In this document: positions 9,826 through 63,534 of the stretch, in pieces
Position numbering within the stretch: the stretch's first letter is position 1
Layout of the letters: the number at the start of each line of letters is the position of its first letter
Source of the DNA: Pyrinomonadaceae bacterium
Lineage (GTDB): Bacteria > Acidobacteriota > Blastocatellia > Pyrinomonadales > Pyrinomonadaceae
Assembly: GCA_041745765.1 (NCBI GenBank)
Contig: JBGTIH010000062.1
Coordinates: 595 to 64,594, forward strand
DNA: 64,000 nt
Reading direction: 5' to 3'
Program-made: the position numbers and the translations under genes
Notes under the pieces: model-generated
Databases searched by the model: none
What the model saw: the letters and a program-made list of their open reading frames with translations, nothing else
Told to the model about the DNA's origin: nothing

Positions 9826-12800
9826 TTAAACGGAGATAAAATCCAAAACTTCGCGCGCTCTTTCAATCGGATTTTTTCCGGTTTCGACAACCTGCAAAAT
9901 TCCGCTCTGCGAAAATTTCGACCCTTCGTTTTCTTCTAAAAACTCCATCAATTTTTCCGGCAGAACGCGCGCATTTTCACTGAGTTTGACGGCAAAGCCT
10001 TCTTTTGTTTTATCGATCGAAATAATTCTCATCTGTTCGGCGAGCTTTCTGAGGCGTGCGAATTCAAAGAGATTTTCGACCGAATTCGGCATTTTTCCGT
10101 AGCGGTCCTGGATTTCCGTGTAAATTCTCCGCAGAGTTTCTTCGGAATCGGACGAAGAAATGCGTTTATAAGTTCTAAGTCTTTGGGAAGTTTCGTTGAT
10201 ATAATCGTTCGGAATCGAAACGTCAACGCCGAGGTTGATCGAAACGCTCGATTCGTCTTCGATTTCTTCGCCTTTGAGTTCGGAAATGGTGCGTTCGAGC
10301 ATTTTAGTATAAAGATCAAAACCGAGCGCATCGAGTTGACCGGATTGCTGACCGCCCAAAATATTTCCCGCGCCGCGCAGTTCTAAATCGAGTGCCGCAA
10401 TGCGAAATCCCGCGCCGAGATCGGAAAATTCTCTGATTGCCGAAAGTCTTCGCCGCGCAATCGGCGTTAATTCCAGTTCGCCCGGAATCAAGAGATACGC
10501 GTAAGCCCGCCGGTTCGAACGCCCGACTCGACCGCGAAGCTGGTAAAGCTGCGAAAGCCCGTAATTATCAGCGCGATTGATAATTATCGTATTCGCCCGC
10601 GGAATATCTATGCCGTTTTCGATGATCGTCGTCGCGATCAAAACGTCGTATTTGAAATCAACGAAATCGAGCATAATTTCTTCCAGAATCTTTTCGTTCA
10701 TCTGCCCGTGCGCGAAAACGACACGCGCATTCGGCACGATTTTTTTGATATGCGCACTCATTGCTTCGATCGTTTCGACGCGGTTGTGAATAAAGAAAAC
10801 CTGTCCGTTTCGCGCCAGCTCGAGCTCGATTGCCGATTTGATCACGCCTTCCGAAAACTGCACAACCTGCGTATTGATCGCCAGACGATCGCGCGGCGGA
10901 GTTTCGATCACCGACATATCGCGCATTCCCAAAAGAGACATATTCAAAGTGCGCGGAATCGGCGTTGCGCTCAGAGTTAAAACATCAACTTTTTTCTTCA
11001 GATGCTTTAATTTTTCCTTGTGCGCGACGCCGAATCTTTGTTCTTCATCAACGACGACCAGACCGATTTTCGGGAGTTTCACGTCATTTGACAGAATTCT
11101 GTGCGTTCCGATCAAAACATCAACTTCCGCTTTTTCCGCTTTTTCGACGACTTCCTTTTGCTCTTTTTTTGAACGAAACCGCGATAAAAGCTCGATTTTG
11201 ACGGGAAACGCCGCAAACCTCTGTTTAAAGGTTTCAAAATGCTGGTAAGCGAGAATCGTCGTCGGTGTTAAAACGGCGACCTGTTTGCCGTCCATCACAG
11301 CTTTAAATGCCGCCCGCATCGCAACTTCCGTTTTTCCGTAACCGACATCGCCGATAATCAGGCGGTCCATCGGGACGGCGGTTTGCATATCTTTTTTCGT
11401 GTCTTCAATTGCGCCCGCCTGATCGGTCGTCAATTGATACGGAAACGCATCTTCAAATTCTTCCTGCCACGGCGTATCTCCGGAAAATGCAAAGCCTTGC
11501 ACGAGTTTTCGTTCGGCGTAAAGCCGCAATAATTCGTCCGCCATATCGCGCATCGCGCGTTTGGCTTTTGCCTTTGTTTTCTGCCAGCCCAAACCGCCCA
11601 AACGGTCAAGCGTCGGCTGCGCCGCTTCGCCGGAAGAATATCGCGAAACCAGATCCAGACGTTCGACCGGAACGAAAAGTTTCGAGTTTTCGGCGTAGAT
11701 CAGGAGCATAAACTCGCGGGATACGCCGCCCGTTTCCAACACCTGCAAACCCTCGAAACGCCCGATTCCGTGATCGACGTGAACGACGAAATCACCGGGT
11801 TTCAGGTCGCGGAAATCGGAAACGAAGGCACTTATTTTGGTCTTTGATCGTTGGTCTTTGATCTTTGTTTTTTGAAATTCGGCTTGCGTCGTTTCGCCGA
11901 AAATGTCCGTTTCGGTGAAGATTTTCAGGTTGAACGAGGGAATTTCAAAACCGCCCGACAGATCACCGATTTTAATTTGATCCGGCGGCAAAACAATATC
12001 GTAATCGCGCAAAATATCGGAAAACCTTTCGGCAATGCCGTGCGCTTGAAAAACGAAAAATTGTCCCTCGTTCCTCGTTCCTCGTCCCTCGTCCTTCATT
12101 TCACGAGTAAATTCTTTGACATTTCCGCGATATTTACGCGTCGGGCGCGAGCCGATCTCGAAATCCGAAGATTTTTCGGCGGTCGGGAATAAAAATAAGG
12201 GTCTTTGATCTTTGATCTTTGATCTTTGATCTTCGGAATTTGAGATTTGAGAAAGCGTTTCAGCAATTTGATCTTGAGTTTCTGAATGTTGAAATTCTTC
12301 ATCGGTTTGCGCCGCCGTTTTGCCGAGCGCGCGGAGTTCGATGCGGCTAATTGAATTTAATTTTTCGCGCAAATTCTCGGCGCTTAAAAATAATTCGTCC
12401 GGCTCTAAACCGATCTCGCCCTGTTCGTTGATTTCGGCGTAATGCGTCTCGATAGTTTCGTAAAAAGTTTCGAGCGTTTTTTCGATCATCGCCGGTTCGT
12501 CTAAAACGAAAATACAATCTTTTAGAAAATCAAAAACGCTCGAATTTCGCGGTTTTACAAGCGGAATCAGGAATTCCCAGCCGGAAAAATCTTCGCCTTC
12601 TTCGGCAAATTGGGTGCGGTCGGTCAGATTCCGCACAAATTTCTCGTCCGAGAATCTCTCACGCGCAAAAAACGCCCAATCCTTAAAATCCTGCGCGGAC
12701 GCGGAAAACGGACGCATCGGCACGATGCGGGTTTCTTTCAGCTGGCTGATTGAAAGCTGCGATTCGGCATCGAACTCTCTGATCGAATCAACCGTGTCGC

Positions 12801-13488
12801 CGAAAAACTCGATTCGCACCGGATATTCCGCGTCCGGCGACCAAACATCGATTATTCCGCCGCGCAGAGAAAATTCGCCGATATTTTTGATCGGTTCTTC
12901 GCGGACATAACCGGAAGAGGCGAGCTTTTCCAACAATTCGTCGGGTGGAAAATCCTCGTCGCGTTTCAAAACCGCGCCTAGTTTCTGCATTTCTGCGGGC
13001 GAAAGCGTTTTGGTAATCAGGGATTTTGCCGAAGTTACGACAAAATCCGTCTGACCGAAAGACAAATTCCAGAGCGTCAGTGCGCGTTTTTCCAGCGTTT
13101 CGGCGTGCGGCGAAATTCCGGCGTAAACGTCCGTTTCCATCGAAGGCAAAGTTTCGATTTTGGATTTTGGATTTTGGATTTTGGATTGATTTTCTCTTGA
13201 ACTTTGAACTTTGGACTTTGAACTTTGAACCGAATCTTGCCAGAAAATCAAATCTGATTCCCACGTTTCGATCTCTTCATTTGAGTCGGCGACGATGACG
13301 AAAGTCTTATTTGTATCGCTTTGAAGTTTTGATAATACAAAGGCTTTGGCGGCGATCGAGGTTAAACCGCTCAGCGAAATTACGCGCGTGCCGCGCTTTA
13401 TTTCGTCGCGTAAGTGTTTTAATTCATCGGTTGTTTCGGATGCAGAATTCATTTCAATAATTTTAGAGAAAATTTCAGGAAGTTGCAC
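9826..13488 (-). CDS. mfd: Transcription-repair coupling factor Mfd
   Basis: 1220 aa. It has the RNAP-interacting block (GDFVVHVDHGIGRFEGL), an SF2 translocase with Walker A (GDVGYGKTEVAMRAA) and DEEQRFG, and a TRG region. The start is either the GTG at 13488 or the ATG at 13452. Four low-complexity inserts are encoded by heptamer repeats. Confidence 0.95.
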   Translation of the reverse strand: MQLPEIFSKIIEMNSASETTDELKHLRDEIKRGTRVISLSGLTSIAAKAFVLSKLQSDTNKTFVIVADSNEEIETWESDLIFWQDSVQSSKSKVQSSRENQSKIQNPKSKIETLPSMETDVYAGISPHAETLEKRALTLWNLSFGQTDFVVTSAKSLITKTLSPAEMQKLGAVLKRDEDFPPDELLEKLASSGYVREEPIKNIGEFSLRGGIIDVWSPDAEYPVRIEFFGDTVDSIREFDAESQLSISQLKETRIVPMRPFSASAQDFKDWAFFARERFSDEKFVRNLTDRTQFAEEGEDFSGWEFLIPLVKPRNSSVFDFLKDCIFVLDEPAMIEKTLETFYETIETHYAEINEQGEIGLEPDELFLSAENLREKLNSISRIELRALGKTAAQTDEEFQHSETQDQIAETLSQISNSEDQRSKIKDQRPLFLFPTAEKSSDFEIGSRPTRKYRGNVKEFTREMKDEGRGTRNEGQFFVFQAHGIAERFSDILRDYDIVLPPDQIKIGDLSGGFEIPSFNLKIFTETDIFGETTQAEFQKTKIKDQRSKTKISAFVSDFRDLKPGDFVVHVDHGIGRFEGLQVLETGGVSREFMLLIYAENSKLFVPVERLDLVSRYSSGEAAQPTLDRLGGLGWQKTKAKAKRAMRDMADELLRLYAERKLVQGFAFSGDTPWQEEFEDAFPYQLTTDQAGAIEDTKKDMQTAVPMDRLIIGDVGYGKTEVAMRAAFKAVMDGKQVAVLTPTTILAYQHFETFKQRFAAFPVKIELLSRFRSKKEQKEVVEKAEKAEVDVLIGTHRILSNDVKLPKIGLVVVDEEQRFGVAHKEKLKHLKKKVDVLTLSATPIPRTLNMSLLGMRDMSVIETPPRDRLAINTQVVQFSEGVIKSAIELELARNGQVFFIHNRVETIEAMSAHIKKIVPNARVVFAHGQMNEKILEEIMLDFVDFKYDVLIATTIIENGIDIPRANTIIINRADNYGLSQLYQLRGRVGRSNRRAYAYLLIPGELELTPIARRRLSAIREFSDLGAGFRIAALDLELRGAGNILGGQQSGQLDALGFDLYTKMLERTISELKGEEIEDESSVSINLGVDVSIPNDYINETSQRLRTYKRISSSDSEETLRRIYTEIQDRYGKMPNSVENLFEFARLRKLAEQMRIISIDKTKEGFAVKLSENARVLPEKLMEFLEENEGSKFSQSGILQVVETGKNPIERAREVLDFISV
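11839..11870. repeat. Tandem GGTCTTTGATC(G/T)TT x2 (2x7-nt period) inside mfd
   Basis: Read directly from the sequence. It is translated as KTKIKDQRSKTKI. Confidence 0.8.
12064..12098. repeat. Heptamer array T(C/T)CCTCG x4-5 inside mfd
   Basis: tccctcg ttcctcg ttcctcg tccctcg tccttca, translated as KDEGRGTRNEGQ. Confidence 0.8.
12202..12251. repeat. Heptamer arrays TCTTTGA x4 then ATTTGAG x2 inside mfd
   Basis: Read directly from the sequence. It is translated as ...SQISNSEDQRSKIKDQRP... Confidence 0.85.
13156..13231. repeat. Two adjacent heptamer arrays (GATTTTG x4, TTGAACT x5) inside mfd
   Basis: Read directly from the sequence. It is translated as VQSSKSKVQSSRENQSKIQNPKSKI. Confidence 0.85.
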
Positions 13489-13497
13489 ATAGAGAAA

Positions 13498-13557
13498 CAG
13501 AAAATGAAAAATGGAAAATATATTCGTTAAATTTATAAATTTTCATTTTTCATTTGC
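13498..13557. repeat. Heptamer-word hairpin (GAAAATG/AAAAATG arms) in the mfd-lysS divergent spacer
   Basis: cagaaaatgaaaaatggaaaat ... attttcatttttcatttgc, with complementary arms. Confidence 0.65.
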
Positions 13558-13814: not shown

Positions 13815-15767
13815 ATGAAAATTGCATCATTTGACGAAATTATCGAACCGAACGATCAGACCGAAGCGCGGCGCGTTCATCTGGAAAAATTGCGGACGTT
13901 GGTCGGAAATGTTTATCCGAATAAATTTGAACGCTCGAAAGTTTCCGGTGAGGAAGACACGATCACGAATCTCGTAAAATTCGCGCCCGTTGCGGAAATT
14001 GTCAGGCAATTAAAGGACAACACGCCCGAAGGCGCGAAACCGGATCAGGAATTAAAGGCAAAACTCAACGAAAAATTAAATGAATTCGGCAGCGTCAGAA
14101 TTTCGGGAAGATTGGCGGTTCCGCCGCGCGTGATGGGCAAAGCCGCGTTCGTACACCTCAGCGACGGCGTTAAGCGTCTGCAAATCTATGTTCGCAAAGA
14201 CGATGCGAAAGGGATTTACAACGGGTCAGACCCGTCTGCGGTAGCGGGCGGTTTAACGTCTGCTTCGGAAAGCTCGAAAAATAATCTTCAACCATCCGCT
14301 ACCGCAGATGGTTCTGACCTGAGCGGTTGGGAACTTTTCGGCTTTCTCGATCACGGCGATTTTATCGGCGCGGAAGGTTTTTTGTTTTTGACGAATACGG
14401 GCGAATTGTCGGTTCACGTTGAAACGATTCAATTTTTATCAAAAGCACTTCTTCCGATGCCGGACAAGATGCACGGAATTGCCGATCCCGAATTGCAGCG
14501 CAGGTTTCGTTATGCCGATCTGATCGCGTCGAGTTTGCAGATCGAACACGAAGGTTTAACGACGCGCGAGGTTTTCGAACGCCGCGCCAAACTTATCAGC
14601 GGAATGCGGCAGTTTCTCGATTCGCACGGCTACATCGAAGTCGAAACGCCGATGCTCACGCCGAAAGCGACAGGCGCGGCGGCGACTCCGTTTGAAACGC
14701 ATCACAACGCGCTCGATATTCCTCTATACGCGCGAATCGCGCCCGAACTTTACTGAAAAAGATTAACGGTCGGCGGTTTTGAAAAGGTTTACGAACTCAA
14801 CCGCAATTTTCGCAATGAAGGTTTGTCGCACAAACACAATCCCGAATTCACGATGCTGGAATTCTACTGCGCTTATATGGATGTCAACGGGATGATGGAT
14901 TTCGCCGAAGCGATGATTAAAGAATCGGTACAGAAAGCGACGGGCGGAAGTTTGGTTGTAAATTACGACGGTAGAGAGATTGATTTTTCAAAGTTTAAAA
15001 GATTGTCAATGATTGATGCCATAATCTCAAAAATGCCTAATTTATTAAAATGGGCAAGCCTTATTAAGGACAGAGACGAGTCAAGTCCTCTAAACTCGAA
15101 AGTGAAAGAACAATTTAATCCTAAAATGATTTTTGAATTATGGACATTGTTTGAAGAATATGCTCATGAAGACAAAGAAATTGTTTTAGAAGACGAACAT
15201 AAAGATTGTAGTGAAGGACACAAAAAATTCCAAGCATTTGAAGAAAAAGTTCTCGAAACTAAAAAGAAATATGAAGGAATTGAAATAACTTCAGCGGAAT
15301 CTGATAAAGACGTATTGGCTTTATTTGAAGATTTTGTTGAAGGAAACTTAATCCAACCAACCTTCATCATTGATTACCCGAAATCAATTTCGCCCTTGTC
15401 GAAAGCGTCGCCGGAGAATCCGCAGATTGCCGAGCGGTTCGAGCTTTTTATCAACGGAATGGAATGCGCCAACGGATTTTCGGAACTCAACGATCCGCAG
15501 GAACAGTATGCGAGATTCATTGACCAGATGAAAGAGCGCGAATCGGGCGACGCGGAAGCGATGGTTTTGGACGAAGATTATATTCGCGCGCTCGCTTACG
15601 GAATGCCGCCGGCGGCGGGAATCGGCATCGGAATCGACCGTTTGGTGATGTTGCTGACAAACAAACATTCGATTCGTGATGTAATATTATTTCCGCATAT
15701 GCGTCCGGTTTCCAGAGAAGAAGAAAGCGAAAATGATTCTGAAGAGGAAAATCAGGACGAGAAATGA
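13815..15767 (+). CDS. lysS: Lysine--tRNA ligase, class II. The reading frame is interrupted by one in-frame TGA (14754-14756), so the ORF track shows two halves.
   Basis: Both ORFs (13815-14756 and 14823-15767) are in the same frame. The sequence across the stop reads ...[45 protein letters not shown], which is the conserved class II LysRS motif region. Downstream motifs are also present ([31 protein letters not shown]). Confidence 0.9.
14224..14320. repeat. Palindromic dispersed element, copy A (inside lysS, translated in frame)
   Basis: GGTCAGACCCGTCTGCGGTAGCGGGCGGTT-36 nt-AACCATCCGCTACCGCAGATGGTTCTGACC. The arms recur at 51683-51788. Confidence 0.85.
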
Positions 15768-16559: not shown

Positions 16560-16657
16560 AAAATATGGCAAAAGTTCGGATAAAGATTCGGGCATTTTGC
16601 CTTTTTTTGTCAGAAATATAAATCGTCAGTTTTTTTTGTGTAGACTTGATTTTACGA

Positions 16658-18187
16658 ATGGAAAACGAAGTTCAGGAAAGCGAAAAAATCGAAAATGTGC
16701 GCGTTTTGCGGCTGTGGCAGATGATCTTTCTCGGCAAGGGAACGCTTGTGCGCCAGCTTATTCACGCCATTATCAGCGTCGCGCTTCGTTTGTTTTTCCG
16801 GCGGATCGAAGCGGTCAATGCCGAAAACGTGCCGCCGGAAGGCGCGATTATTTTCGTGCTAAATCATCCGAACGGCTTGGTTGATCCCGCGCTCGTTTTT
16901 GTTTCGCTCATCCGGCGCGTTTCGTTTCTTGCCAAATCCACGCTTTTCGATATTCCGGTCGCCGGATTTTTGCTGCGGACATTCGAGATTTTGCCCGTTG
17001 CGCGGCGCGTTGATTCGGCGGGCGATATGTCGAAAAACCGGATGACGTTTCAGAATTGTTTTGACCTGCTCGTCAAAGGACGCTGCATCGCCATTTTTCC
17101 CGAAGGAATCTCGCACAACGAAACAAAGCTCCAGCCCTTAAAAACCGGCGCGGCACGCATCGCGCTCGGCGCACTCGGATTTACGGAAGAAGAAGAGAAA
17201 GAAAAATTTCAGATTTCAGAAAATGAAGAAACAAATGACGAAGGACAAAGGTCAAAGGACGAAACCAATCCAAAATCCAAAATCCAAAATCTAAAATTAA
17301 AAGTCATGGCTGTCGGGCTTTATTACACTTCAAAAACGTCTTTTCGGAGCGAGGCTTTGATTCGTTACGGCGATCTGATCGAAGTCGAGCCGGTTGAATT
17401 AGACGAAAACGGCGAACCGCCGCGCGAAGCCGTCTATGCGCTGAACGCGAAGATCGAAGACGCTTTGCGAAAAGTAACGCTCAATCTCGAATCGCAAAGC
17501 GAACTCGACACCGTTCTCAAAGCTGAAGCGTTGTTTTCGTCCGTTTACGAAAATCTTTTGTTTAAAGACACGCTGACGCAGAGTTTTAACCGTTTGCAAT
17601 CGCTCGCCGAAAAATACGCGCTTTTGGAAAAAAACGATCCGCAGAAAATGAGCGAACTCGGCGAAAAGGTAACGCGCTACGAAAACGCCCTGAAAACGAG
17701 CGGCGTCACGGCGGAGAGTCTTTCGGTTCTGCATCATCCGACATCTTATGTGTTTCGCTATTTAATCTTGCGCGTCCTGTTTTTGCTGATTCTCGCGCCG
17801 CTTGCCGTCATCGGCGCGATCATTCATTCGCCCGCTTATTTTTTCTCAAATCTTCTGGGGCGCACCGTGACGACGCACGACGTAGATGCTGCCGGTTCTT
17901 CGTCTAAAATAATTGCCGCGATGATCTTTATGCCGCTAACGTGGCTGATAGTTGCGCTTGTTATACTTTTTTTTTTCGGCTGGCAGCTTGCGCTTATTTC
18001 GATTCCGGCGACGATTTTGTGCGGTTATATCGCGCTTCGTTCGTCGGAAACGTTGATTGATCTGAACGTCTGGATAAAATCGGCGTGGCTTCTTTTTCGC
18101 CAGCGTGCGCTCTTTCTTCGATTACTCGTCCGGCGCAAATCTTTGCAGGAAGAGATCGGCGATATTATCGAAAAAGACGAGAGATGA
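16658..18187 (+). CDS. PlsC-family acyltransferase with a C-terminal membrane domain
   Basis: HX4D motif (VLNHPNGLVDP) and FPEGISH motif, with C-terminal TM helices. The ATG at 16658 is preferred over the TTG at 16646. Confidence 0.8.
   Translation: MENEVQESEKIENVRVLRLWQMIFLGKGTLVRQLIHAIISVALRLFFRRIEAVNAENVPPEGAIIFVLNHPNGLVDPALVFVSLIRRVSFLAKSTLFDIPVAGFLLRTFEILPVARRVDSAGDMSKNRMTFQNCFDLLVKGRCIAIFPEGISHNETKLQPLKTGAARIALGALGFTEEEEKEKFQISENEETNDEGQRSKDETNPKSKIQNLKLKVMAVGLYYTSKTSFRSEALIRYGDLIEVEPVELDENGEPPREAVYALNAKIEDALRKVTLNLESQSELDTVLKAEALFSSVYENLLFKDTLTQSFNRLQSLAEKYALLEKNDPQKMSELGEKVTRYENALKTSGVTAESLSVLHHPTSYVFRYLILRVLFLLILAPLAVIGAIIHSPAYFFSNLLGRTVTTHDVDAAGSSSKIIAAMIFMPLTWLIVALVILFFFGWQLALISIPATILCGYIALRSSETLIDLNVWIKSAWLLFRQRALFLRLLVRRKSLQEEIGDIIEKDER
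17243..17305. repeat. Heptamer arrays (CAAAGGN x2, AAAATCC x3-4) inside the acyltransferase gene
   Basis: ggacaaag gtcaaag gacgaaa ccaatcc aaaatcc aaaatcc aaaatct aaaatta, translated as GQRSKDETNPKSKIQNLKLK. Confidence 0.8.
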
Positions 18188-26630: not shown

Positions 26631-26716
26631 AAGTTTCAAATTTCAAGTTACGAGTTCCAAGTTAAAAAATTACTTGGAACTCGTAACTTGAAACTTGGAA
26701 CTTTGAACTTTGAACT
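26631..26716. repeat. Heptamer-word hairpin (AAGTTNC / ACTTGNA arms)
   Basis: caagttacgagttccaagt-taaaaaatt-acttggaactcgtaacttg, flanked by further 7-nt words. Confidence 0.75.
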
Positions 26717-29412: not shown

Positions 29413-29504
29413 TCGGAATAAGTGAAAAGTGAAAGGTAAATAGTGATAGATGATTCTTCGATAAAACCTATCATTTATCACTTATCACCTTTTACTTATT
29501 CCGA
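29413..29504. repeat. Heptamer-word hairpin (AAGTGAA/TAGTGAT arms)
   Basis: tcggaataagtgaaaagtgaaaggtaaatagtgatagatga ... tatcatttatcacttatcaccttttacttattccga. Confidence 0.75.
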
Positions 29505-35234: not shown

Positions 35235-36005
35235 TTATAAATAAAATAAACTCAGCCGCGGAATTTCGCGTTCATCCCGAAGTTTTTTAAGAAGCATCAG
35301 CTTAAATGTCCGCTCATAAACTTCTCTTTCCATTTTTGTCTGATAATCGGCGATTTTCTTTGACGTTTCAGCTTTTAATTTTTCGGTAACGAATGATTTT
35401 AATAAAATTTCGTCAATTGAAGCGTCCAATTTTTCGAGATTTTCCTCGAGTTTTTCAGCCGAAAGTTTTTTGTTTTTCAGCTGATTCAAACTTTCCGAAA
35501 CTTTTTCCAAAATTTTCTTCAAATCGCCGACGGCATTTTCGGCGGCGAAATCCAATCCGGCGGAAATTGTTTGAAGATGTTCGGCAATCGTTTCATCGGA
35601 AAACAACTCGTTTTTCGGATGATTTTCTTGGCTTTTATCCGGCGTTTTAATCTCCGTTTTGCCGTTTTTCCCGATTTGCGATTCGAGCCATTCGGCGTAT
35701 TGCGCTTCGATTTCTTCTTTGCAATACGACAGAGATTTGATCGTCCGGCGTTTGTTCGGATTTTTATCGTAAGCATCGAAAACATTTTCGATGCCGCGCA
35801 AAATAATATGAAGCGGCACGCCGCGCTCTTGCCACGTTTCGATCAAAGCCCAATCCAGAGGATTTAAAAGCAAATTGCGCCCGCGCCGGCGGATAAAAGC
35901 TTCTTCGATTTCGGAAAAATAGTTAAAGTAATTCAATGGTGAATGGTGAACGGTGAATGGTGAATTATAAATTGGTTTTTTTATTAACCATTCATCATTC
36001 CCCAT
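35235..36005 (-). CDS. Hypothetical protein with a C-terminal coiled coil
   Basis: 256-aa ORF. The first ~24 codons are encoded by the hairpin repeat at 35934-36014, so the true start may be the TTG at 35936. Confidence 0.55.
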   Translation of the reverse strand: MGNDEWLIKKPIYNSPFTVHHSPLNYFNYFSEIEEAFIRRRGRNLLLNPLDWALIETWQERGVPLHIILRGIENVFDAYDKNPNKRRTIKSLSYCKEEIEAQYAEWLESQIGKNGKTEIKTPDKSQENHPKNELFSDETIAEHLQTISAGLDFAAENAVGDLKKILEKVSESLNQLKNKKLSAEKLEENLEKLDASIDEILLKSFVTEKLKAETSKKIADYQTKMEREVYERTFKLMLLKKLRDEREIPRLSLFYL

Positions 36006-36014
36006 TCACCATTA
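35934..36014. repeat. Heptamer-word hairpin (AATGGTG arms)
   Basis: caatggtgaatggtgaacggtgaatggtgaatt ... aaccattcatcattccccattcaccattaatc. Confidence 0.75.
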
Positions 36015-36322: not shown

Positions 36323-36455
36323 AAAAGTTCAAAGTTTAGAGTTCAAAGTTCAGAGTTATCGTTTAGAATAGCATTGCTTATAATTTTGCATTTCAAAAAA
36401 CATTTGCTTTAAAGTATAACCAAACCTTGAACATTAAACTTTGAACTTTGAACTT
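36323..36455. repeat. Long-loop heptamer-word inverted repeat (AAGTTCA arms) in a divergent spacer
   Basis: aaaagttcaaagtttagagttcaaagttcagagtt ...65 nt... aaccttgaacattaaactttgaactttgaactt. Confidence 0.7.
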
Positions 36456-41131: not shown

Positions 41132-41703
41132 AATTTCTCCCTTTGTTCGTAATTTGTTCAAGATTTCCATTACAATACATTCGAGCTTTTCATACTGTGT
41201 GCTGTCATACATAAGAAAGTTTTTTTTGATAAAACTTAACCTTTCTTTAAATTCCTTTGCAGCATAAATCCAACTAAAATAAACAGTCAGAGCTTATGTT
41301 TAATAAAATAACAAGTCCTGAATCTTTATTTTAAGATTTCTCGTTTTGTTTACTATTTTACAGATTAATCGGAAAAGTTTCCGGCAGCTGATCTATTTGA
41401 CAAGGAAATTAAAGTCATAAATACAAAAAAATTTATTTACTTACGATAAGTTCAGCGCAGTTTGAATAAAGAAATGTACTCAAATGATTTAAGAATTTCG
41501 TTTTAACAATTTCGGAATGACTAATTTCAAAATCTTAAAAAGGCTTTTATCGAATATGATTTCCCAAAAACGTATCGGAACAATACGGCTTGAATGTGTG
41601 TTCCAGCTACAAAATTATTTAACATCCTTATTTTTCAGTAGTAGCGGGATTTTATTTTTTTCGGCACGTCTATTGCGGTAATAGTTTACAAGAGGAAAAA
41701 AGA

Positions 41704-41913
41704 ATGGCACAAGAAACATCAAATGAAGAAAGAGCTGCGGAAAAATCTTTTAATGAATCACCGAAAACTATAAATAAAGCGACTACGGTAATGGTAATCG
41801 GGGGAATTATATTGTTGATTATTGCTACGGTAATGCTCTTGTCTTTTTGTCGAAATGACACAAACACAGGAAATTCCACTACTCCAGCCGCAACTAACAG
41901 GGCTTCACCGTAA
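41704..41913 (+). CDS. Possible small single-TM protein
   Basis: 69-aa ORF with SD-like AGAGGAAAAAAGA before the ATG and one hydrophobic helix. It lies in an AT-rich, gene-poor stretch. Confidence 0.35.
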   Translation: MAQETSNEERAAEKSFNESPKTINKATTVMVIGGIILLIIATVMLLSFCRNDTNTGNSTTPAATNRASP

Positions 41914-42146
41914 GTTTTTGTAAGAAAAAATACTGATTGTCTGTTTAAGCAAAGAGAGTCTTCATGATTTATGCAAATCTGAATAAATCGGAATTATTAC
42001 AAATCAGTAGATTAAATTAAGTCTGACGGCAAATTATTGCCGTGTCGCGCTCGAAGAATGCTTAGGGGTTTTATTATATTAGATTTTGGCTAATCTCAAA
42101 CTCGAACGATTAATATTCATTCCTACTCTTTAATCAATTTAGATGA

Positions 42147-42261
42147 TTAGGTCTTTGGCTTTCGGTCTTTAATTTTTGCTCTGATATTTAGAGTTTCGTT
42201 TCAAAAATCAGTTGCTTTTTATTAAAATGACTTTTGCAAAGACCAAAAGCTAAAGTTCTAA
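42147..42261. repeat. Long-loop heptamer-word inverted repeat
   Basis: ttaggtctttggctttcggtctttaa ...63 nt... gcaaagaccaaaagctaaagttctaa. Confidence 0.55.
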
Positions 42262-42332
42262 TCAGCTATAAATCAATTTTCGTAATCCAGATCAGGCGAA
42301 AGCTTTTTGACGATTTGATTTAAGAAAAACTC

Positions 42333-42379
42333 AATGCTATTGTTTCATAGATGAAACAATAGCATTAAACAATAGCATT
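42333..42379 (+). promoter_or_regulatory. Perfect 34-bp palindrome plus a third direct half-site, 20 nt upstream of the Rad52-like gene (operator or RNA switch candidate)
   Basis: AATGCTATTGTTTCAT-AG-ATGAAACAATAGCATT followed immediately by AAACAATAGCATT. Confidence 0.55.
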
Positions 42380-42399
42380 AAAAAAGGCAGGAAACTAAC

Positions 42400-49216: not shown

Positions 49217-49316
49217 CTATCAACTGTCAATTATCAACTGTCAACTAAAATATCAGAAAAACCATCGCTTTATTTTCTGTAATTTTAGTGGATAGTTGAA
49301 AGTTTATAGTTGATAG
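49217..49316. repeat. Long-loop heptamer-word inverted repeat (CTATCAA/CTGTCAA arms)
   Basis: ctatcaactgtcaattatcaactgtcaactaaaat ... attttagtggatagttgaaagtttatagttgatag. Confidence 0.7.
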
Positions 49317-49404
49317 TTTAGTCCACAAACTTTGTGCAATATTTGAGTTGTAAAATAGCTTTTCAGTTAAGTTATTCGTCAAAAGTGTCGTTTTCGGATT
49401 CAAA

Positions 49405-51682: not shown

Positions 51683-51788
51683 GTCAGAACCATCTGCGGT
51701 AGCGGATGGTTAAAAATAACTTTTCAAACCTTGGCAAATAACTCAAATTTTCGAGTTGAACCGCCCGCTACCGCAGACGGTTCTGACC
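51683..51788. repeat. Palindromic dispersed element, copy B (between the permease and ATPase genes)
   Basis: GTCAGAACCATCTGCGGTAGCGGATGGTT-46 nt-AACCGCCCGCTACCGCAGACGGTTCTGACC. The arms are the reverse complement of copy A with one mismatch. Confidence 0.85.
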
Positions 51789-63452: not shown

Positions 63453-63534
63453 TGGTGAAACTTTTTAATGGTGAATGGTGAATGGTGAATGATAAATGAT
63501 AAGAAATTTCTTACAATTTTCCATTTTCCATTGT
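63451..63534. repeat. Heptamer arrays (AATGGTG x4, AATGATA x2 ... TTTTCCA x2)
   Basis: Read directly from the sequence. The arms are only partially complementary. They use the same AATGGTG word as 35934-36014. Confidence 0.65.

Follow-up and report, generated by a model that had tools for sequence, protein, structure and literature searches.

The window analyzed here is a stretch of 64,000 nucleotides (nt) from a Pyrinomonadaceae bacterium (Acidobacteriota; assembly GCA_041745765.1, contig JBGTIH010000062.1, positions 595 to 64,594), and its subject is mfd, the gene for the transcription-repair coupling factor, in which tandem arrays of 7-nt units are embedded in frame. The arrays occupy four sites, coding for amino acids (aa) 87-113, 413-429, 465-476 and 538-551 of the protein. 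The gene and its arrays are listed below, with unit counts and match percentages as given by Tandem Repeats Finder (TRF).

9826-13488, minus strand: mfd (transcription-repair coupling factor), GTG start, open reading frame (ORF) of 1220 aa.
13197-13230, minus strand: site 1a array, TTGAACT x4.9, 92% matches; GTTCAAA on the coding strand; aa 87-98, VQSSKSKVQSSR; loop within domain D1a.
13152-13187, minus strand: site 1b array, TTTGGAT x5.1, 96% matches; AATCCAA on the coding strand; aa 101-113, QSKIQNPKSKIET.
12238-12252, minus strand: second array of site 2, ATTTGAG x2.1; TCTCAAA on the coding strand; aa 413-417.
12202-12233, minus strand: first array of site 2, TCTTTGA x4.6, 100% matches; AAGATCA on the coding strand; aa 419-429.
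12063-12094, minus strand: site 3 array, GTCCCTC x4.6, 92% matches; GGACGAG on the coding strand; aa 465-476, KDEGRGTRNEGQ; loop within D3.
11836-11875, minus strand: site 4 array, a 14-nt unit x2.8 or degenerate CAAAGAY heptamers x5.7; aa 538-551, FQKTKIKDQRSKTK; linker between D3 and the RNA polymerase-interaction domain (RID).

The encoded protein carries the complete Mfd set of Pfam domains (UvrB_inter, CarD_TRCF_RID, DEAD, Helicase_C and TRCF), so that the UvrB-homology module, the RID, the superfamily-2 translocase and the C-terminal TRCF domain expected of an Mfd/TRCF member are all present, with the Pfam RID domain starting at aa 562. A search of the PDB finds solved Mfd structures at E = 6e-216. 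One public source uses an alternative start at 13452, which gives a protein of 1208 aa. Protein P0001 is 100% identical to the window Mfd and forms a singleton cluster, and the kin of this mfd are metagenome-assembled genomes of Pyrinomonadales/Pyrinomonadaceae (Acidobacteriota).

TRF finds six period-7 arrays at the four sites, with the units and nearly the coordinates that the initial annotation had reported from the sequence alone, and translation yields the low-complexity peptides that it had quoted. The site 2 peptide (aa 413-429) reads SQISN..EDQRSKIKDQR and belongs to the linker that joins the UvrB-homology module (D1b) to D3. Tract length is 4.6-5.1 units at 92-100% purity, with site 4 at only 75%, and the site 1b unit AATCCAA is found again at 17267-17297. 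Every mfd array has a 7-nt unit and lies within the ORF, and the expectation that gain or loss of one unit would shift the frame holds in simulation: +1 or -1 slips lead to products of 134-567 aa. When a +1 and a -1 slip are paired in adjacent arrays, an in-frame hydrophilic linker is obtained again.

An AlphaFold2 model covering aa 13-650 (53 sequences in the alignment, mean predicted local distance difference test score, or pLDDT, of 71) was used to locate these sites in the fold. The pLDDT falls below 50 at aa 88-107, 385-440 and 533-557 of the window protein, which correspond to sites 1, 2 and 4, and site 3 is modeled as a loop that links a helix to a strand, at a pLDDT of about 62. The arrays had been assigned to linkers by motif position, and with predicted disorder at sites 1, 2 and 4 and a loop of medium confidence at site 3, this placement is borne out.

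Heptamer arrays are not confined to mfd. In a lag scan of the window, lags 7 and 14 yield 11 arrays apiece, the other lags from 4 to 15 yield 0-1, and shuffled sequences about 0.1; the period-7 arrays are therefore far beyond chance. TRF returns about 30 period-7 rows for the window. When these rows were overlaid on a crude gene map, about 20 proved to be intergenic, and intergenic DNA makes up 13% of the window. The intergenic arrays commonly occur as inverted pairs, such as 35935/35983, 36324/36423, 49217/49286 and 13501/13540, and the heptamer units are A-rich, with AAA(N)4 as their common form. Paired arrays of reverse-complement units, 8-66 nt apart, were seen at 26631-26716, 29420-29499, 35935-36013, 36324-36455, 49217-49318 and 63467-63532. 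One intergenic pair and one further set of in-frame arrays serve as examples:

13501-13555, no strand assigned: inverted pair of short heptamer arrays AAAATGA/TTTTCAT, directly upstream of mfd; the typical intergenic form.
17206-17297, plus strand: three heptamer arrays, ATTTCAG, ACAAAGG and AATCCAA, in frame within an acyltransferase gene; peptide KFQISENEETNDEGQRSKDETNPKSKIQNLKLK.

The acyltransferase gene (16646-18187) is thus a second housekeeping gene with in-frame arrays, and an ortholog of 74% identity lacks 18 aa exactly at the array position. Beyond the window, the same count was made for loci of several lineages:

Pyrinomonadales loci, 393 kb: 103 period-7 arrays; other periods 0-9 each.
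Other Acidobacteriota loci, 34 kb: 0 period-7 arrays; other periods 0.
Firmicutes/delta-proteobacterial loci, 110 kb: 0 period-7 arrays; other periods 0-1.
Spirulina/other cyanobacterial loci, 36 kb: 7 period-7 arrays; other periods 0-3.

Period 7 is the sole enriched repeat period, both in the window and in the Pyrinomonadales loci. The heptamer arrays are a lineage-wide genomic trait of Pyrinomonadales and are not aimed at mfd. With the excess at period 7, the mainly intergenic and often inverted-pair arrangement, and the restriction to a lineage with units and length varying among related genomes, they belong to the class of genome-wide heptanucleotide simple sequence repeats.

Over-representation of heptamers has been described for cyanobacteria, Xanthomonas (GGGAATC) and Beggiatoaceae (TAACTGA) (PMC4692102; PMC4679880). 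The repeats of these organisms resemble those of Pyrinomonadales in their period-7 excess, mostly intergenic position, frequent inverted pairs and length and sequence that vary between related genomes, as well as in the occasional copies inside ORFs that are limited by stop codons and orientation. Apart from the host phylum, they differ in two respects: the Pyrinomonadales host has many A-rich units with no single dominant motif, and its arrays repeatedly fill the same four loops of one housekeeping protein throughout the family. A literature search gave no report of heptamer repeats in Acidobacteria. In Beggiatoaceae, heptamer direct repeats have been proposed as protein-binding sites (PMC4679880), and the arrays could accordingly be looked on as binding sites or as structure-forming DNA or mRNA elements that act in regulation even inside a coding sequence. 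The recurrence of A-rich AAA(N)4 units across loci fits such a role, and the intergenic pairs could form long hairpins. However, the mfd arrays do not stand in inverted pairs, units at the same site differ freely among orthologs, and the arrays keep no conserved position with respect to start codons, which makes this explanation highly improbable for the arrays of mfd.

Comparison with orthologs places the arrays in the same parts of the protein again and again. In 37 intact orthologs, with the arrays of the window counted, 50 of the 52 heptamer arrays fall at the four sites; of the two outlying arrays, one is at aa 501 and the other at the C-terminus. Assembly artefact was rejected as their source, since dozens of independent assemblies show arrays at these positions. 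The units found at one site vary widely among species, with those of site 1 including TCAAATC, AATCGAA, AATCAAA, CAGATTT, AATCCAA, TCAAAAC, TCAGTTC and ACAGTGG, and within each array they are uniform. At site 4 the orthologous peptides likewise differ (KTKDQRP, KSKVQSP, KTKNQKP and KDKGQRT), and each DNA array stays homogeneous. The mfd arrays undergo concerted evolution at the DNA level, with the peptides following the DNA. A stop codon occurs in none of the 52 units in any frame but would occur in 19 of them if they were inverted, and the orientation in use is the more hydrophilic one for 48 of the 52. Such a bias toward stop-free and hydrophilic units is what a selective filter acting on randomly arising arrays would leave.

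The hydrophilic nature of the peptides from all arrays might also mean that the K/Q/S-rich sequences were selected as flexible or charged spacers, for example as a basic D3-RID linker, with the DNA periodicity being a mere trace of their origin. Site 4 lends itself best to this explanation: it is basic and KTKDQRPKTK-like, nearly every ortholog has it at near-constant length, and its aligned counterpart in E. coli (RRRQDSRR) is basic, too. Against it, single-base changes of the unit replace the whole peptide of a site, a signature of homogenisation at the DNA level and not of peptide conservation. Furthermore, several orthologs and outgroups have no arrays at sites 1-3, and unrelated inserts, or a break of the polypeptide, can take the place of site 2. 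Selection for the peptides themselves is thus an improbable cause of the arrays.

The break at site 2 is widespread. In many Pyrinomonadaceae mfd is split into an N-terminal ORF of about 365-395 aa ending in ...TDEEFQxx and a C-terminal ORF of about 790 aa, which starts M..PLFLFPTAEK in locus L036 (L numbers designate loci of relatives). N-terminal-only Mfd ORFs form the majority of the best 120 database matches to aa 114-400 of the window protein, and some of them sit on closed contigs of 3.4-5.4 Mb; the mfd of the window is intact. If the polypeptide can be broken at site 2, the array-coded peptides there are unlikely to matter.

Several kinds of insert were observed at this site. A cassette splits mfd at L036:1045-1902, L027:4176-5035, L082:6150-6996, L080:6123-6887 and L081:6141-6798; it contains a small ORF (ORF1), to which an HNH endonuclease gene is added in L036, L027 and L082, and the HNH gene is uncalled in L080 and L081. 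Pfam and NCBIfam searches with ORF1 gave no match. The cassettes of L036 and L027 are 82% identical, a value similar to that of the adjoining mfd. At L079:2260-2925 a DUF2490 gene with a signal-peptide-like start splits mfd in the site 2 linker; this locus comes from a long-read assembly and also has frameshifts in the N-terminal part of mfd. Site 2 of L031 (4116-4738) has a unit of some 38 aa (GRNARASKRADSAPSDGSDDVGDGTLPSGRVSALEIE) repeated in tandem about four times, which is a far longer type of repeat. In L034 (4160-4290) it holds a palindromic element of about 90 nt (GTCAGAACCGTCTGCGGTAGCGGGCGG ... CCATCCGCTACCGCAGATGGTTCTGAC), whose DNA fold has -28.8 kcal/mol (z = -6.7) and which is also present at 14226-14318 and 51684-51786 of the window. 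One of the window copies lies in frame inside lysS, with a peptide ending in ...SATADGSDL, and the intergenic copy has the opposite orientation. The lysS gene itself (13815-15767, plus strand) is broken by an in-frame TGA at 14757-14759, a position at which other LysRS presumably have Leu; TGA ends 9 of the 48 ORFs of the window, where it is a normal stop, and the TGA in lysS may reflect a nonsense mutation, an error of sequencing or readthrough. Elsewhere in the window, 1.2 kb (41213-42399) carry no ORF of at least 90 aa in the crude map; repeats found there are one of 14 nt in tandem (41488-41514) and one of 13 nt (42354-42382).

How the arrays behave over shorter times was followed by comparing alleles from the loci of relatives. 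The closest intact one is L074 (protein P0002), with 91% identity in protein and 86% in DNA, and its unit counts at all four sites are the same as in the window mfd, the 14% nt divergence notwithstanding. Identity between the two is 84% inside the arrays and 86% over the rest of the gene. The site 3 unit is altered in every copy with the length kept, being GGACGAG in the window and of GAACAAC type in L074 and L001. Among about 17 comparisons of proteins with at least 98% identity, made within 90% clusters, one has an array indel, and this is in frame. L077 and L078, which come from different samples, are identical over 4185 nt save for a 21-nt indel at site 1 (L077, ~545-565), exactly three AATCCAA-type units, so that the frame is kept. 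Slippage is probably fast enough to homogenise arrays and to yield strain polymorphism. A scan of metagenome contigs for same-species alleles, by exact pattern with the conserved site 1 flank, returned one contig, which shares only the 23-mer and is no relative of mfd.

Frameshifted alleles are rare at the arrays. An array-linked frameshift is found in about 1 of 60 related loci, namely in L050, a single short contig frameshifted within the site 2 array: it has three ACAAAGG units, compared with four in L075, and one added unit mends its frame and gives an L075-like peptide. The frameshifts of L037, L043 and L057 fall outside the mfd arrays. Three further truncated candidates added no slip allele. 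L083 and L085 are from error-prone long-read assembly; L085 has several frameshifts, and L083 is unscorable against a relative of 80% identity. L084 has a 1-nt indel in a T-run at 4.7x coverage and no unit slip. To judge from these alleles, slippage does take place at the mfd arrays, and the surviving variation keeps the frame.

These observations bear on the proposal of the initial annotation that mfd is a slipped-strand contingency locus, in which the arrays are kept since one-unit slippage reversibly switches Mfd and creates subpopulations altered in transcription-coupled repair and mutagenesis. Several points are in line with it. First, 7 is not a multiple of 3, and any one-unit slip truncates Mfd ahead of the RID and the translocase. 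Second, several arrays are 92-100% pure, and the difference between L050 and L075 is of the kind that one unit reverses. Third, the three-unit change that is alone in 4.2 kb between L077 and L078 indicates that slippage is fast relative to point mutation. Mfd is, in addition, non-essential in model bacteria. On the other hand, about 1 in 60 loci is OFF at an array and three others are frameshifted elsewhere in the gene, the further truncated candidates trace to long-read assemblies or to a T-run indel, the counts in L074 have not changed, and the one change among about 17 strain-level comparisons is in frame. The arrays are also genome-wide and mostly intergenic, and affect the acyltransferase gene as well. 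The combination of copy number that differs among close relatives and a sizeable OFF share, by which a phase-variable locus is recognized, was not found.

Known repeat switches offer points of comparison. In mutL of Salmonella and E. coli, a DNA-repair gene, a short tandem repeat of 6 bp acts as a switch, and its copy number alters repair capacity; its unit, however, is a multiple of 3, its in-frame changes alter the ATP-binding region, and it is a specific locus and not part of a genome-wide repeat class. The repeats of hmw1A and hmw2A in Haemophilus influenzae are situated in the promoter or 5′ region, where they grade transcription with no shift of reading frame. They share with the mfd arrays the 7-bp tandem unit and the copy number that shifts by slippage (PMC8262952). 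In neuO of the E. coli K1 phage CUS-3, a heptamer tract lies in the coding sequence as in mfd, full-length protein is made only if the unit number keeps the frame, the tract ranges over 3-53 units with 20 as the most common number, and the gene is OFF in 65.6% of 64 complete genomes (PMC13001214). In contrast to this one long 5′ tract with measurably mixed colonies, mfd has four short tracts of about 5 units (4.6-5.1) that are almost always in frame. A phase-variable mfd was not reported in the literature searched. Every comparative test available on these sequences speaks against a contingency switch, and we regard it as an unlikely explanation of the arrays.

The arrays are probably heptamer repeats tolerated in permissive Mfd linkers under selection for keeping the frame, and not a dedicated switch. 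Replication slippage would generate and homogenise short A-rich heptamer arrays, mainly between genes, and such arrays would persist within a gene only at positions of the protein that are open to a hydrophilic, disordered insert. Mfd would offer four such places: the D1a loop, the D1b-D3 linker, the D3 loop and the D3-RID linker. There, a selective filter would admit units that are stop-free in all three frames, in the K/Q/S/N/D-rich orientation and with a net length divisible by three, and single-unit slips would be removed by purifying selection on the frame, or offset by a second slip, instead of being used as a switch. The initial annotation had offered, as its second possibility, fossil arrays tolerated in linkers. 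The tolerance is borne out, but the arrays are not fossils, as concerted evolution and the three-unit strain polymorphism show that their turnover goes on. It had also held that invariant copy number together with peptides conserved across distant relatives would point to ordinary low-complexity linkers. The outcome is mixed: strains do differ in copy number, though only by changes that keep the frame, and the amino-acid sequences of the peptides show no conservation.

Three observations weigh against tolerated local slippage as the whole account. Units recur at dispersed loci: mfd shares AAAGTTC with 36324/36423 and AAAATCC with 17267, and AATGGTG is common to 35935 and 63467. Purely local slippage would not lead one to expect this, and some mechanism that prefers certain units, or mobility, may lie behind it. 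In purity and length the mfd arrays rank near the top of the window, so that no erosion by selection against instability is visible. Finally, the L050 allele means that a frame-breaking one-unit change has reached an assembly consensus at least once.

On present evidence, the mfd arrays reveal no new switch by which DNA repair is regulated. The four arrays might still, even in the absence of dedicated selection, allow mfd of Pyrinomonadaceae to be turned off and on reversibly at a low rate, with single-unit slips knocking it out and a second slip in the same or an adjacent array restoring the frame; we consider this quite unlikely. If it were true, soil populations would always hold a minority without transcription-coupled repair and Mfd-dependent mutagenesis. 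Heptanucleotide repeats, so far mainly a matter of cyanobacteria, Xanthomonas and Beggiatoaceae, are now extended to an abundant soil phylum. Their presence in mfd amounts to a natural experiment on which Mfd loops tolerate insertions or even a break of the chain, and, for annotation, the repeats account for the odd low-complexity peptides and the length variation in Pyrinomonadaceae proteins.

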